Positions 16,885 through 53,540 of a stretch of DNA of 64,000 nt are shown here, one piece after another. The stretch is from Eledone cirrhosa. Lineage: Eukaryota. Positions within the stretch are counted from its first letter, which is position 1, and the number at the start of each line of letters is the position of its first letter. The notes beneath the pieces are model-generated. The model saw only the letters and a program-made list of their open reading frames with translations. It did not search any database and was not told where the DNA came from. The position numbers were made by a program, and so were the translations under genes. Location of the stretch: assembly GCA_964016885.1 (NCBI GenBank), contig OZ024743.1:313720001-313784000 (forward strand), written 5' to 3'.

Positions 16885-16977
16885 TTTTCAGCAAACAGGG
16901 CAGATAAAGCTGACAGGGCCCTGTTTCGCATTTTTTTATGCTTATCAAAGCCAACTACTCCTCCTGTTTGCTGAAAA
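16885..16977 (-). ncRNA. Type I hammerhead, U3-A8 core, extended stem I (unit 1)
   Basis: RC: TTTTCAGCAAACAGG..GGCT-TTGATAA-GCAT aaaaaa ATGC-GAAA-CAGGGCCCTG-TC-AGCT..CCTGTTTGCTGAAAA. Confidence 0.85.
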
Positions 16978-17202
16978 TCATGGATGTTTGATTCTTATAG
17001 AATACTAGTAAATAATCAGGAAGTGATTACATACAGCCGTTGCCGGTCAAGCAGAAATTGAAAATTAGAATTGGTGCTCTGAAATAGCTATATATATGAA
17101 TGTATATATAGTGTATTTTGCAATACACTGTATGCTTAATTAAAAGCATTTCGAAGACCTTATGCTATTGTTTTAGAGTAGTGACAGTCTCACTTACTTT
17201 AA

Positions 17203-17295
17203 TTTTCAGCAAACAGGGGAGATAAAGCTGACAGGGCCCTGTTTCGCATTTTTTTATGCTTATCAAAGCCAACAACTCCTCCTGTTTGCTGAAAA
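17203..17295 (-). ncRNA. Type I hammerhead, U3-A8 core, extended stem I (unit 2)
   Basis: Core identical to unit 1, at 17226-17270. Confidence 0.85.
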
Positions 17296-17592
17296 TCATG
17301 GATGATTGATTCTTATAGAATTCTAGTAAATAATCAGGAACTGATTATACAGAGCGGTTGCCGGTCAAGCAGAAATTGAAAATTAGAATTGGTGCTCTGA
17401 AATGGCTATATATATATGAATGTATATATAGTGTATTTTGCAATACACTGTATGCTTAAACAGGGTCCTGTCAGCTTTATCTCCCTTGTTTGCTGAAAAT
17501 TAAAGTAAGTGAGACTGTCACTACTCTAAAACAATAGCATAAGGTCTTCGAAATATTTTTAATTAAGCATCCTTGAGTATATATGTCTTCAG

Positions 17593-17917
17593 TATATATA
17601 TATGTGTATATATATATTTATATATATATATATATATATATATATATATATATATATATATATATATATATATATATATATATATATATATATATATATA
17701 TATATATACATATATATATATATATATACATATATATATATATATATATATATATATATATATATATATATATATATATATATATATATATATATATATA
17801 TATATATATATATATATATATATATATATATATATATATATATATATATATATACATATATATATATATATATATATATATATATATATATATATATATA
17901 TATATATATATATATAA
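17593..17917. repeat. Long (TA)n microsatellite
   Basis: ~320 bp of near-perfect TA; the largest of dozens of TA/CA tracts in the window. Confidence 0.95.
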
Positions 17918-18020
17918 TAGATATAGATATATATATGTGTGTGTGTGTGTGTATGTGTGTGCGTGTGAGAGTGTGTGTGTGTATGTGTGTGTGAGTGTAT
18001 GTTTATGCTTGTATATATGT

Positions 18021-18276
18021 GAAGGCGTATGGCTTAGTGGTTAGAGCATTGGGCTTGCAATCGAAAGGTTATGAGTTCAATTCTCGGACAGGGTGATGTG
18101 TTGTTTCCTTGAGCAAGACACTTTATTTTACGTTGCTCCAGTTTACTCAGCTGTAGAAATGAGTACCGGCCTGCCCGCCCGGCCAGTGGGATGGCGTTAT
18201 CTTATGGCTAAAACAGCACGACGTGCTGTGACCAGCGGTGCCGATGGGCGCCCGCAGGCTGGTCGGTCAAGGTGAT
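18021..18276 (+). mobile_element. CORE-like tRNA-derived SINE
   Basis: A box TGGCTTAGTGG and B box GAGTTCAATTC, then CCTTGAGCAAGACACTTTATTT..CGTTGCTCCAGTT.ACTCAGCTGTAGAAATGAG. Confidence 0.85.
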
Positions 18277-19101
18277 ATATATATATATATATGTATATAT
18301 GTTGTATGGCACAGTGAGTATTTTTATTATGTGGTATTCGTAGTGTCCTGATTTGAAATGCTACAATACTTTTAAAATATTTGTGCTTGCATGGTTGCCA
18401 TCTCTTTAAACGTCGAGTTAGAAGCCTTAATTCTGCATGTAATATCTTAACACTTTTTGTGACGCATAATCGTCATATGTTTCTATCCTGTCTTAAAGAT
18501 TTTGCTGCAGTGAATATATTCCATTTCGCAACGTATTTTTTTAATTAATTAGCATAAATAACTCAATATGGATGTGGTATTATGACTGCTGTCATTCCTG
18601 AAAGAAAATTTGTGCAGATTAAAACGGATTTGAAACCATTAGCAGTAAGGTCTATATAGATCTTTTTGAAATCCGATGATGTGACTTGGCATTTAAATAC
18701 TATATTGTTTGTGAGGCAATTGAAATTGAAAAAAATCTTTTCTATGATATCGTCATCCATCCTTCAGTTGCTGTAATTTCCCCACGCCCACTCCCCACCT
18801 CCTAAAGTTCCCTATTTACATACACAAATAAAACATATACAAGTGAAGCGTGGATAACAAACATCAGTTCTCCGAATAATCTAAACATCAGCTTTGCTAA
18901 AAGATGTAAGAAACTGAATAAATAGAATTATATATACTGTATTATAAATATGGAATTCTGTTTCCCTTTTCTTAACTGCAAATATAATTGAACACACACA
19001 CGCACACACACACACACGCACACGCACACACACACACACACACACACACACATACACACACACAGACACACACATATATATATATATATATATATATATA
19101 T

Positions 19102-50180: not shown

Positions 50181-50364
50181 GGCGGTGAATTGGCAGTATC
50201 GGTAGAGGGTCGGGTGCCATGCTTTGCAGCACAGTTACGTCCCTTTACGGACTGAGTTCAAATCCCGCCGAGGTTAACTTTGCCTTTCATCCTTACGAGG
50301 TCGATAAAATAAAGTACCAGTAATACACTGGATAATTGCTGGCCTTGTGCCAAAAGTAGAAACA
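50181..50364 (+). mobile_element. tRNA-derived SINE with 17-bp target-site duplication
   Basis: TSD AATATTCCCTTATCAAG at 50164-50180 and 50365-50381. Confidence 0.93.
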
Positions 50365-50919
50365 AATATTCCCTTATCAAGTTCTGAGATATTTTAATAA
50401 AGCCCAAGTAAGAATTTATTTCTCTTTTTGACCCTGCTCATTTGATGGAGTTGCAGAGGTTCAGTAAAATATGGTGGAATTCATCTCTTGCTCAGAACTA
50501 AACACAGGCAATTTTAAGTATCGGTGGGTGTGTGTTTGTGCTAGAGAGAGAGAGAGAGAGAGAGAGAGAGAGATCGGTGAAGAATGGAAGGGAGAGTTGA
50601 GAAGAATGTGAGAGAAAGAGTGTGAAAAAAGATATAGGAAGAATCTACCACAGTCAGAAGTGAATGATAAATTATTTATCGTTCTTAAACGAATGAAAGG
50701 CATAGTATATTTCGGTGCAGAGTGAGTTGAAACGATCGAATGCTGCAAATTAGTCTATCCGATTTTCTAACGACTCGCAAGAACAGAAAATGTGTTGGAC
50801 CTCCGTCGGTTACGATGATGTGTATTCCAGTTGGTCGGAACAAGGGAACAGTCTGATCATAGAATTCTGATGTAAATACAGAGTCTTTCAAAAACACCTG
50901 TACCCTCAGGGAGATTCAG

Positions 50920-51035
50920 CAACGTGAAATAAAATGCTTTGCTCAAGGACACATCATACCACTCAGTCCGGGAAAAAAGTTAGAGCTTTACGATTATAAG
51001 CTCAAATATCCTAACCACTAAGCCATGTAACTTCA
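50920..51035 (-). mobile_element. CORE-like SINE 5' part, diverged
   Basis: RC: ATGGCTTAGTGGTTAGG..GTCCTTGAGCAAAGCATTTTATTTCACGTTGCT. Confidence 0.65.
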
Positions 51036-52074
51036 CATAAAGAAAGGAATACTAAACTAAGTCTGAGACCTTCATTTGACATTATTTGCTTCAAGTATAT
51101 CTGAGAAGTCTTCTATAAAAGGTTAGGTTATCTCTTCTTCAGGAGAAAACAAATGCTAGCTTATCGATTAATAATTAATGGCTGCCGAACAACTCAAAGA
51201 CGTAGAGACGAAATGTTAAGTAGGTTTCGCATGAGGAGACTCATATTTACATCAGGCTCTAAATCTAATTGTACAAGTAATTAAAAGTTCCCCAATCTTT
51301 ATTATTTCTTTTACTAATCTACATTAGGGCAACTTACCAAAAATGTGAAGTTTACATCAAGATTAAGTCGGTAACGTTTATATTTCGAGTGTGTGATAGA
51401 TATTAACAATGCTGAGTGCATGATACAGTCATTTTGCAATCTTACTTGTCTCTCAGTTCATTTGTTTCTCAAAATTTCCTCATGAATTAAGATGGTGGCA
51501 AAATGTCAGAAAGTAATCCTATGCTTGGGTATAAAATTCTTTTGCCTGTTTATAGAGGTATTGCATTGAAAGATTCGGAAATTTTAATATACACACACAC
51601 ACTCGCACGCACAAACACACACACACACACACACATGCACGCAGAAACAAACACACACTTATATATACATGCATATATATGTCCCTATGTGATCAACAGC
51701 TGAGAGAAAGGAGTAGTTAATACCGAAGTAGAGTTTTAATATTCATAGTATTGAGGCTAAATAGTGAGTCTTGTTACTCTGGAGATTCGCCTGTTTATCA
51801 CAGGATGATCAGTTAAGAACTAACAATTCAATAGCAAACACAATATAAATAAAGGAAGACTTGAGATGAGAGAGAGAGAGTTTTAAATGAGGAGGGGTAA
51901 TAAAGATAGGGTCAAGAGGGTGGTGGGGGCAGTGGGAAGAATAGCGCTGTGTGAAGAAGATAATGGAGGATACAATGGTCATACAATTTTAACGGGAAGT
52001 AGGTGATGAATGTGAAGAAGGGTGTATAGGGTGTTAGGGAAGAGGTTGGTGTGATAGGCGGGATGGAAGGGTGG

Positions 52075-52330
52075 AATGGTATATACATACTTAGTCGCTT
52101 CGGCCACATTCCTCGGTACTGCGGCCCGCCTTGCAGAAGAACGGAAAATGAAAAATCCTACCGGGGTCTGTCCGGCCGCTTCCTCTTCGCACCGGTCGCC
52201 GTTGAGACCTCAGGCGTACTTGGACCCCGTACAAACGAGTTACTTCGCAAGATCGGAATGTCGACAGCCGGTCTGAGGAAGGAGCCCCGCGAGGTGGAGT
52301 TGCTGTTCCAATTAATCGGATGGTAAACCA
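52075..52330 (+). mobile_element. CRE-like non-LTR retrotransposon RLE C-terminal fragment
   Basis: Two frames join to AARLAEERK..YRGLSGRFLFAPVAVETSGVLGP..LLRKIG (K..KY..F.P.AVET.G..G signature); GC-rich patch. Confidence 0.65.
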
Positions 52331-52611
52331 CGGAAGTGGAGACTTGGATTTTCAACAAGGAAGAAGTTCCAGCGATCCGTATTTACACTTCAAGTTCAAA
52401 TCAGCGACTGGCCAGCAGCACGTGCTATATTTACTAGAAATACGCACATCATACTAGCTTCGTCCCAGTGGCGTGAATAGGGTTATCGACAACTATAAAC
52501 AGCAGTCGAGTCCATTCAACAGAGTTAGCTCTACAATTAAGCAGCCGTATTTTATATCTATATCCAAAATTAAGATAAATCAAATGAATTTAATCTAAAT
52601 CAAAATTATGG

Positions 52612-53540
52612 GTGTCATGCCAGAAAGACATGCGCCATATCACCCGGCATCGTTATGTAACTACCTTTGCGAACAAGACCTGGCAACTGAGGGAAACTAA
52701 CCAGCAATACACCCTGAAGTGGAAGAAATTATCGAACACGCCTGCATATCGGAGTGGTATGAGAAGCTGTCGATTGTGTGACCTTGAACTGTTCCACATT
52801 TTGAGTTCGAAGAATAAGTTACTCAACAATAAAATCGAAAGAACAATTTATTGCAACCATAGACTTAAAGAAAAATTTGCGCACTACAAGTGCAAATCGA
52901 ACCCTTAACCTCTTACTACTACCACCTGACAAACTGCATATACTTAGACTTTCTACCCTCTTATTGAATCTAACCCCTTTTAATTACCCACAGTAACCAA
53001 TACTTATGTCCCTCTCTCCTCCTTCTTTCCTTTTTTCTTTTCTTTTCTTCTTTTCTTGTTCTCTTTTCTTTTCTTCTTTTTTTATCTTCCCCCTTTTTAT
53101 ATATATATATATATATCTCCCTATCTCTCCCCCTCCCTCTCTCGCTCTCTCTCTCTCTATCTCTCTCTCTCCCTCCCACTATAATCAATTTAATTCTCTT
53201 TAACTCCCTACACTGAAAATTGACGACATCAAGTCTACCAATCAAAACTGATTGAGGAATCGTTCCATATTTACCCCTCCCTCCATCTCCGTTTGTGCCT
53301 CTACTTCCTAATTCTTCTCCCCCTTCCTCTCTCTCTATACTAGTAAATACGATTTTTAAAAATGTTGTTTTTTTTATATATTAAGAACCTTTTGAAAATT
53401 TGGAGGTGAATAACAATTATTATCGAGTGGCTGCTATCTGCAGTATAGCGATATAAGGTTGCGCTTACCAATGAAACGGTCGTAAATACCTGGATAAAAT
53501 CCTTTTTTAATGCTTACCTGTGTTTTCTCATTTATTGTAT
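52612..53540 (+). mobile_element. Naiad-type PLE 3' end (GIY-YIG C-terminus 52612-52908 plus 3' region) ending at (TA)n
   Basis: TWQLRE..YTLKWK..AYRSGMRSCRLCDLELFHI..LLNNKIE..YCNHR; U3-A8 hammerhead-like motif at 53390-53486. Confidence 0.7.

Follow-up and report, generated by a model that had tools for sequence, protein, structure and literature searches.

Hammerheads carrying a U3-A8 instead of a C3-G8 core pair have been reported in Penelope-like elements (PLEs), with about 1,300 hits in Schistosoma, for which a dimer model was put forward and activity in vitro was low; the point that standard descriptors overlook these PLE hammerheads was already made in 2014 (PMC4209133). The natural covariation from C3-G8 to U3-A8 is also described, and cited as active in vitro, by Perreault et al. 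(2011; PMC3088659), where A13 belongs to the consensus core. Besides, cleavage of a PLE hammerhead was found to require the PLE protein, and insertion in vitro still took place with catalytic mutants (PMC11167929); whether cutting is needed for PLE mobility is treated as an open question in PMC8557442 and PMC11167929.

The U3-A8 swap being known, what the genome of Eledone cirrhosa adds is scale and a matched pair of families, namely A with an intact core and D with A13C, both young and high-copy with proteins 56% identical. This pair therefore allows it to be tested directly whether a PLE hammerhead has to cut for its element to move. In our reading, which is held as quite probable, the motifs reside in terminal repeats of related PLEs (families A, B and D) and in a 318-bp tandem (family C), the U3-A8 core having been inherited from a common ancestor and copied thousands-fold.

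Hammerhead-like motifs of the window and their fold

The window, i.e. the whole stretch analysed, comprises 64,000 nt of Eledone cirrhosa (GCA_964016885.1, OZ024743.1, positions 313,720,001 to 313,784,000). The original prediction listed nine TTGATAA or TTGAAAA heptamers as U3-A8 hammerhead cores, considering this pair as a tolerated natural variant, in line with what PMC3088659 had published. All nine were located as listed, those at 13875, 16942, 17260 and 47160 on the minus strand, and eight exhibit the full type I layout with a U3-A8 core, as scored on the core, helix II, G-A/C-AA, palindromic helix III and UH, namely 1420 (+), 13881 (-), 16948 (-), 17266 (-), 20039 (+), 21722 (+), 29619 (+) and 47166 (-), four of them thus on the minus strand. 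The ninth, TTGAAAA at 53392..53398 (+), is a chance heptamer, helix II, GAAA and helix III being all absent 3' of it; by itself, TTGANAA occurs 100 times in the window (62 on the plus and 38 on the minus strand). An additional U3-A8 hammerhead at 29064 (-), the inverted partner of 29619, was missing from the prediction, as was the replacement of the core GAAA by GCAA (A13C) at 1420 and 13881. The features of the window are as follows:

1..471, minus strand: 5'-truncated RT part of a family D PLE, extending beyond the window to the GIY-YIG domain (locus L077)
1420..1449, plus strand: family D hammerhead-like motif, U3-A8 with A13C, inverted, on the 5' side of the truncated PLE
13852..13881, minus strand: family D motif, U3-A8 with A13C, solo truncated end
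16770..17459, minus strand: family C tandem, period 318 bp, 2.2 copies, GC 34%, retrozyme-like
16912..16948, minus strand: family C hammerhead, U3-A8, 12-nt palindromic helix III, GUC site
17230..17266, minus strand: family C hammerhead, second unit
20039..20068, plus strand: family B hammerhead, U3-A8, U.U at 10.1/11.1, helix I of this copy decayed
21722..21751, plus strand: family A hammerhead, U3-A8, GUA site, exact 30-mer with 11,539 genomic matches
22172..22202, minus strand: canonical C3-G8 hammerhead, family E, comparison motif
22516..22546, plus strand: canonical C3-G8 hammerhead, family E, inverted partner of 22202
29034..29064, minus strand: family B hammerhead, left arm of the 28981-29702 palindrome
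29619..29649, plus strand: family B hammerhead, U3-A8, right arm of the same palindrome
47137..47166, minus strand: family A hammerhead, located 1.1 kb past the GIY-YIG frame of the PLE to which it belongs
48257..48970, minus strand: 3' part of a family A PLE (linker, Zn-finger-like motif, GIY-YIG; Pfam PF01541, E 4.4e-06; tblastn)

A strict descriptor retrieved six U3-A8 motifs and one C3-G8 motif in the window; over 40 shuffles of the window, it gave a mean of 0.05 hits. An Rfam scan of the window returned no hammerhead among the best 150 of 164 matches (E up to 1), the canonical C3-G8 motifs being likewise without a match to the hammerhead models among the matches listed. Some other candidates were discarded, namely GCAACCGGTA at 53604-53613 (-), which is devoid of helix II, and the apparent C3-A8 single mutants at 13759 (+) and 1550 (-), which are the antisense of family D sequence just behind its hammerhead.

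Regarding the layout, the core N3-UGA-N7-N8-A / GAAA / UH with a paired 3-8 is present in families A, B and C, and the palindromic 15.1-16.1 segment is either ACCGGT or a 12-nt palindrome. Helix II is 4-5 bp long, a G directly follows A9 in A, C and D, and helix I is restricted to 2-3 bp in B and D; these motifs thus depart from the minimal subtype, with its helix II of 7-8 bp and unpaired base after A9, and fit the subtype with a small palindromic helix III as defined in PMC4209133. Over 18 aligned rows, the 3-8 pair is intact in every row and 84% of the cells are paired versus 41-53% when slid, the rows being hand-picked and related so that the shuffle control overstates the significance. 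In helix I, where 76% of the cells are paired, both-sided changes occur at all four pairs. The stem II covariation originally put forward mostly reduces to one common GCA/TGC core in the stems quoted, and what stands is a both-sided change at the fourth pair, T-A vs. G-C, which is C-G in related family C copies. Compensatory changes of this kind, which distinguish the helices of different families, do argue for selection on the fold. Upon cofolding, two copies are predicted to join via helix III in 10/10 of the U3-A8 sequences folded, and the minimum-energy folds of single copies are often without hammerhead.

Elements carrying the motifs and their kinship

In three of the four families, the motif follows the RT/GIY-YIG gene of related PLEs at a distance of some 0.4-1.3 kb, the fourth being the 318-bp tandem. 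For family A, the 48257..48970 product is 98.7% identical to the full 775-aa frame, and the motif follows the GIY-YIG frame on the same strand at 26/30 loci and occurs in both repeats flanking one full unit of 4,679 bp (L076). RVT_1 (PF00078) and GIY-YIG (PF01541) are recognised by Pfam in the long frames of both A and D, the RVT_1 match of family A falling slightly below the curated cut-off, and a CX4CxxC linker is visible in the A/D protein alignment. Insertions take the form of partial tandems and inverted 5'-truncated copies (L072-L076, L138-L141 and the 28981-29702 palindrome). A run search, conducted for family A only, listed no RNA run for its motif, and plain folding behind the slippery site revealed no clear pseudoknot. 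For family D, the 1..471 segment is 59% identical by tblastn to the family A protein, with matches in L077/L078, and 92-94% to genomic copies, many of which carry 784-aa frames; the motif was found behind this frame at the 5/5 full-length loci fetched, and full frames persist in tandem.

For family B-pattern loci, a same-strand endonuclease is present within 1.5 kb upstream in 11/30 and an inverted one in 2/30. The masters of the related B' and B'' families are U3-A8 (97 among the first 100 matches out of 236, and 95 among the first 100 out of 171, respectively); a suspected C3-A8 subfamily vanished on counting, only five of the latter 100 being C3-A8 and the remainder U3-A8. Two C3-G8 copies (L033 and L038) have flanks in common with the older B' family, beyond expectation from independent singles, and may reflect a switch or reversion inside the clade. 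Of note, a U3-A8 motif with a different helix II was met once (L031).

Family C matches retrozyme units in being non-coding, within 150-450 bp, under 45% GC and with one hammerhead each, and a spacing of about 319 bp recurs at 9/30 loci (five separate places). None of 30 loci holds a PLE frame of its own, while three hold family A-like fragments. Its subfamilies differ by a T-A to C-G swap in helix II with the helix III palindrome kept. The flanks align with those of A, B and D nowhere except for simple repeats and a 30-nt stretch; with no protein of its own, its kinship to A, B and D would be indicated solely by the common core and GCA/TGC stem.

The notion that the motifs belong to several independent families could not be upheld for A, B and D, which are linked to PLE proteins 56-78% identical: the endonucleases of B type share about 66-78% identity with D and cluster with D against A, and the 3' ends of A and D remain alignable, at 72% over 123 nt (E 2.5e-11). 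The ACCGGT helix III and GCA/TGC stem are common to A, B, B', B'' and D, which form one protein clade. The U3-A8 core thus likely derives from one common ancestor, a conclusion based on parsimony, since the tree covers the endonuclease region only (15 rows) and no C3-G8 outgroup was long enough to enter; the only C3-G8 family with an upstream endonuclease match (L204) is about 26-29% identical.

Repeated independent emergence of U3-A8, with selection for catalysis fixing it on each occasion, appears improbable. The different helix III and unalignable flanks of family C, the C3-G8 copies inside B', the L031 motif and the occurrence of U3-A8 in distant Schistosoma PLEs (PMC4209133) speak for it, but the single protein clade with identical helix III and stem and the U3-A8 masters of B' and B'' speak against it.

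Copy numbers, decay and the A13C change

Genome-wide, in one pattern class of 19,617 matches, about 19,400 are U3-A8, 221 are single changes (132 C3-A8 and 89 U3-G8) and 10 are C3-G8. That positions 3 and 8 always change together, as originally claimed, is true in the window and for family masters genome-wide, and not for copies. Singles are indeed far rarer than the double, yet this ratio is no test of selection. With the 11,539 exact 30-mers of family A as the base of comparison, single changes amount to 22 for A8G, at least 37 for U3C, 32 for the free A7G and 38 for a loop A-to-G; A8G is slightly under the free sites (22 vs. 32 and 38, p=0.06) and singles at 3 and 8 arise at about the free-position rate. 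The rarity of singles therefore comes from the copying of a master, with no selection on copies, and these counts illustrate that a single/double mutant ratio among repeat copies cannot demonstrate selection. The warning that CUGANGA searches overlook a large class proved right: 15 of 42 descriptor matches in a 664-kb sample, i.e. about one third of the hammerhead-like motifs, escape them, and genome-wide match counts give at least some 30,000 such motifs.

It is most improbable that U3-A8 is a by-product of GC-to-AT drift in decaying C3-G8 copies with no working core. Each of the two changes is a GC-to-AT transition, the genome being AT-rich, and a CpG-type decay from C3-G8 to C3-A8 was observed once (L192 vs. 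L191); yet decay would produce singles before doubles, and the 11,539 identical U3-A8 30-mers with intact CpGs, facing only 10 C3-G8 in the class, point to masters that are themselves U3-A8. These counts refute drift, CpG decay included, as the origin of the copies, and it could persist only as the mutational route in the ancestor.

Family D lacks the invariant A13 (GAAA) of PLE type I hammerheads, position 13 being C in 10,499 matches genome-wide versus A/G/T in 133; it is a descendant of a PLE hammerhead family and not a consensus member. C13 is present across D subfamilies with flanks 83-100% identical, and the A13 copies scattered among them are back-changes; an ancestral A13 subfamily was sought among 50 rows and none was found, the 12 A13 rows being dispersed. 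Contigs of three runs list no difference from the family D motif at position 13; one run is labelled as another organism, with one difference, the third matched in short parts only, and there is no usable outgroup. Changes of A13 strongly lower hammerhead cleavage. From its sequence, the fixed A13C would likely weaken or abolish cutting in family D, which still reached 10,499 matches. Titles and abstract beginnings yielded no publication on an A13 substitution in hammerheads, a weak negative as Lunse et al. and the supplements of PMC4209133 and PMC3088659 may list one, and a text search of PMC11014351 for A13, C3U, G8A and U3-A8 gave no match.

Regarding what maintains the motif, a non-catalytic job in all families, i.e. 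dimerisation via the palindrome or protein binding with cutting incidental, is rather unlikely. The fixation of A13C across D subfamilies with full frames retained points that way, as does the normal in vitro insertion of catalytic mutants of another PLE hammerhead (PMC11167929). The other families nevertheless keep the catalytic set, i.e. U4, G5, A6, A9, G12, A13, A14, A15.1, U16.1, H17 and the 3-8 pair, across proteins down to 56% identity, and D is nested among A13 families in the endonuclease-region tree, so that A13C looks like one loss. For D itself, a young PLE family of more than 10,000 copies in which A13C became fixed and helix II, the palindrome for dimerisation and the remaining core were retained through several waves, it is tentatively conceivable that PLE hammerheads have a role beyond cutting, in RNA dimerisation or in binding protein, or else that the combination of U3-A8 and C13 forms a functional core assisted by protein.

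Under the preferred reading of inherited PLE hammerheads, two motifs of a tandem transcript would pair via the palindromic helix III (ACCGGU), and a predicted cut after GUA or GUC, probably aided by the protein of the element, would trim the multimeric RNA. Selection would operate on rare master elements, which would account for the way helices I and II vary by compensatory changes from family to family; in D, with cutting predicted to be weakened or abolished, the element would spread without it. The original argument that the double change betrays selection for catalysis gains nothing from copy ratios and does not apply to D, what endures being selection on the fold as suggested by the between-family helix changes.

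Comparison with known hammerhead systems

The closest system is that of the minimal and small-palindromic-helix-III hammerheads of metazoan PLEs, among them the U3-A8 variant of the Schistosoma mansoni Cercyon elements (Cervera and de la Pena 2014, PMC4209133), which share the type I layout and the RT/GIY-YIG-flanking repeats. The PLE hammerheads described there also have in common a palindromic helix III predicted as a dimer, a predominance of solitary truncated copies, opposite-strand pairs 100-700 bp apart and a U3-A8 core escaping the standard descriptor. In contrast, helix II is of 4-5 bp in the Eledone families and 7-8 there, A, C and D are without the extra base between A9 and G10.1, the copy number is tenfold (about 30,000 vs. 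1,300) and family D adds A13C, which the opening sections of that paper do not mention.

In Perreault et al. (2011; PMC3088659), a U10.1-U11.1 mismatch like that of family B is also reported; U3-A8 is a rare variant there whereas it is the core of an entire high-copy clade in Eledone, and the section on core variation lists an insertion after A13 and no A13 substitution. Family C resembles the metazoan non-LTR retrozymes (Cervera and de la Pena 2020, PMC7229834; bioRxiv 10.64898/2026.07.22.740005) in its 318-bp tandem unit, GC of 34%, type I hammerhead, absence of an own protein and location beside PLEs, but differs from them in its U3-A8 core and in its many solo or inverted-pair copies instead of long arrays, and is known from DNA alone. 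Finally, with the Neptune/Nematis-type PLEs (Craig et al. 2021, PMC8557442), the Eledone elements share the C-terminal GIY-YIG, the CX4CxxC linker, partial tandems, inverted 5'-truncated copies, insertion among (TA)n and an optional ORF1 joined by frameshift, a likeness based on features.

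Hammerhead motifs in the window and beyond

The heptamer TTGANAA by itself occurs 100 times in the window, and the test therefore lies in the flanking layout. Of the nine TTGATAA or TTGAAAA heptamers originally predicted to be U3-A8 hammerhead cores (bases at core positions 3 and 8), all are present where they were placed, four on the minus strand, and eight are embedded in a full type I hammerhead layout. The ninth (53392) was rejected, no hammerhead parts lying downstream of the heptamer, and a further site (29064) had been overlooked.

Type I hammerhead layouts (descriptor scan and motif search of the window; nine sites)
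1420, plus strand: family D, GCAA in place of GAAA
13881, minus strand: family D, GCAA in place of GAAA
16948, minus strand: family C
17266, minus strand: family C
20039, plus strand: family B
21722, plus strand: family A
29064, minus strand: family B, overlooked site
29619, plus strand: family B
47166, minus strand: family A

Genome-wide pattern matches (lower bounds)
Family A, of Penelope-like elements (PLEs): 11,539 (exact 30-mer)
Family B, of PLEs: 1,265 (pattern)
B' and B'', older relatives of B: 236 and 171, respectively
Family C, retrozyme-like: 446
Family D, of PLEs: 10,499

In the window, the strict descriptor returned 6 U3-A8 and 1 C3-G8 hits vs. 0.05 per shuffled window (40 shuffles); an Rfam search gave no hammerhead in the best 150 of 164 matches, which were weak.

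Other hammerhead-like motifs in the window
22172-22546, 38289-38539, 39523-39577: canonical C3-G8 motifs of two further families, each with inverted pairs
4935-5705, 6838-6959: inverted pairs, core CTGACGA or CTGATGA, helix layout a poorer fit

The second canonical family has a long helix II and helix III ATGCGCAT. Elsewhere in the genome, another U3-A8 motif was sighted once (L031:680); its helix II differs (GATGG/CCATC), and its site is GUC.

As regards the contention that standard searches miss a large class, a 664-kb sample (the window plus 600 kb chosen regardless of content), scanned with positions 3, 8 and 13 free, yielded 42 motifs, namely 24 C3-G8 (10 of them from one array), 15 U3-A8, 1 C3-A8, 1 U3-G8 and 1 other, against ~4 hits of any kind after shuffling; roughly one third would thus indeed be missed.

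Kinship, fold and decay of the copies

The supposed independence of the U3-A8 families mostly gives way to kinship of the A, B and D proteins and of the A and D 3' ends. Protein identity is 56% between A and D, whose 3' ends can be aligned over 123 nt with 72% identity; B-type endonucleases share ~66-78% identity with D, and an endonuclease tree of 15 rows (hits of >=95 residues only, leaving out L204) groups B-type and D together against A with full support; L204, the sole C3-G8-linked endonuclease, stands at ~26-29% identity. On the simplest reading of these sequences, U3-A8 would have been inherited once by A, B, B', B'' and D, family C not being placeable. Among the ~236 copies flanked like B', two carry C3-G8 (L033, L038) and may represent a switch or reversion. 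Copies with B' flanks display all four 3/8 combinations (L033, L038, L262, L263, L266-L268).

Genome-wide, with the helix III tail held fixed, 19,617 matches comprised ~19,386 U3-A8 (by subtraction), 132 C3-A8, 89 U3-G8 and 10 C3-G8. Singles are rare, as anticipated, but those of family A arise near the free-site rate and cannot serve as evidence of selection: exact A8G changes number 22 (by eye, complete list of 89) and exact U3C changes at least 37 (by eye among the first 100 of 132, seven of them falling inside a 90-kb stretch of C1), compared with 32 at free position 7 and 38 at a loop base (A8G vs. the two free sites, p=0.06). Family A copies thus decay about neutrally at positions 3 and 8, and the surplus of doubles consequently tells only the state of the master, i.e. 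the source element.

Selection does appear, from sequence comparison, between families, where helices change in step. Across 18 author-chosen rows, one to three per family, helix I shows both-sided changes at all four pairs, and 84% of its cells are paired vs. 41-53% with the partner slid, a control that overstates significance since the rows are related. Within family C, the fourth helix II pair is T-A in some subfamilies and C-G in others, the palindrome of helix III being retained. The catalytic set is constant across the compared families, with the sole exception of A13 in D. In predicted cofolds, two copies paired through helix III in 10/10 U3-A8 sequences; in single-copy folds the hammerhead was often missing.

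Position 13 of family D

Changes at A13 strongly reduce hammerhead cleavage. In family D, position 13 is C in 10,499 matches vs. 133 with A, G or T, and C13 extends to subfamilies that share 83-100% identity with the youngest one; A13 rows (12/50) are scattered, as expected of putative back-changes. Since D is nested among A13 families in the endonuclease tree, C13 is derived. A13 is part of the consensus core (PMC3088659), and helix I of D consists of three U-A pairs only. Cutting in D is likely weak or absent. Full frames are still present in tandem, which would fit passages of PMC11167929 reporting that a PLE hammerhead cleaves only with PLE protein and that catalytic mutants insert in vitro all the same. 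A limited literature search found no published A13C hammerhead family. The main remaining interest is that the A/D pair offers a test of whether PLE hammerheads must cut.

Carrier elements and known systems

Carrier elements and associated repeats
48257-48970: PLE 3' part with GIY-YIG domain, same strand as the 47166 motif and 1.1 kb ahead of it
1-471: RT piece of a second PLE family (784-aa frames)
L076:2392-2398, L138:6127-6133: slippery heptamer T TTT TTA, conserved in both PLE families
1200-1320, 21330-21500, 47430-47480: repeated TCACGTGAC and CCAAT-like boxes, A and D 3' repeats
30630-37930, 57100-63940: non-LTR retrotransposon copies, A-rich and RVT_1-bearing, in tandem, 97% identity
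18012-18153, 24125-24255, 41422-41508, 49033-49160, 50918-51039: short repeat

The family A motif lies downstream on the same strand in 26/30 best loci for the 48257-48970 endonuclease, and in both flanking repeats of a full 4,679-bp unit (L076); the family D motif follows the 784-aa frame in 5/5 full-length loci fetched. For family B, an endonuclease lies upstream within 1.5 kb on the same strand at 11 of 30 pattern loci, and in inverted orientation at 2. Both long PLE frames contain RVT_1 and GIY-YIG (Pfam) and a CX4CxxC linker. Their upstream frames (409 and 455 aa), without Pfam match, overlap the RT frame in -1 phase; a frameshifted ORF1 is described for some PLE types in part of PMC8557442. 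The boxes upstream of the A and D hammerheads are possibly an internal promoter. Rfam matches tRNA weakly at 18030-18087 within the short repeat, which is probably a tRNA-derived SINE. By eye, the C-terminal domain of the A-rich non-LTR copies looks like a restriction-like endonuclease. C3-G8 hammerheads were also encountered in retrozyme-like palindromic tandem arrays whose units measure ~310 bp and 467 bp (L040; L186-L187).

Location, copy structure, counts and covariation are direct observations. Following the dimer model outlined in part of PMC4209133, tandem transcripts would bring two motifs together, helix III would form between them, and the RNA would be cleaved after GUA or GUC into unit-length or circular templates. 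U3-A8 preserves the tertiary 3-8 pair; passages of PMC3088659 cite it as active in vitro and place its natural covariation in print since 2011. In PLE hammerheads, the 2014 account (PMC4209133, in part) relates that a first descriptor missed the variant and a new one gave ~1,300 hits. The feature is real, the PLE and retrozyme-like families being new and the core variant already published. The tandem and inverted shapes agree with those of PLE insertions in the relevant part of PMC8557442, and family C, a 318-bp tandem (GC 34%) lacking its own protein frame at the 30 loci examined, resembles the likewise non-coding tandem non-LTR retrozymes described in part of PMC7229834.
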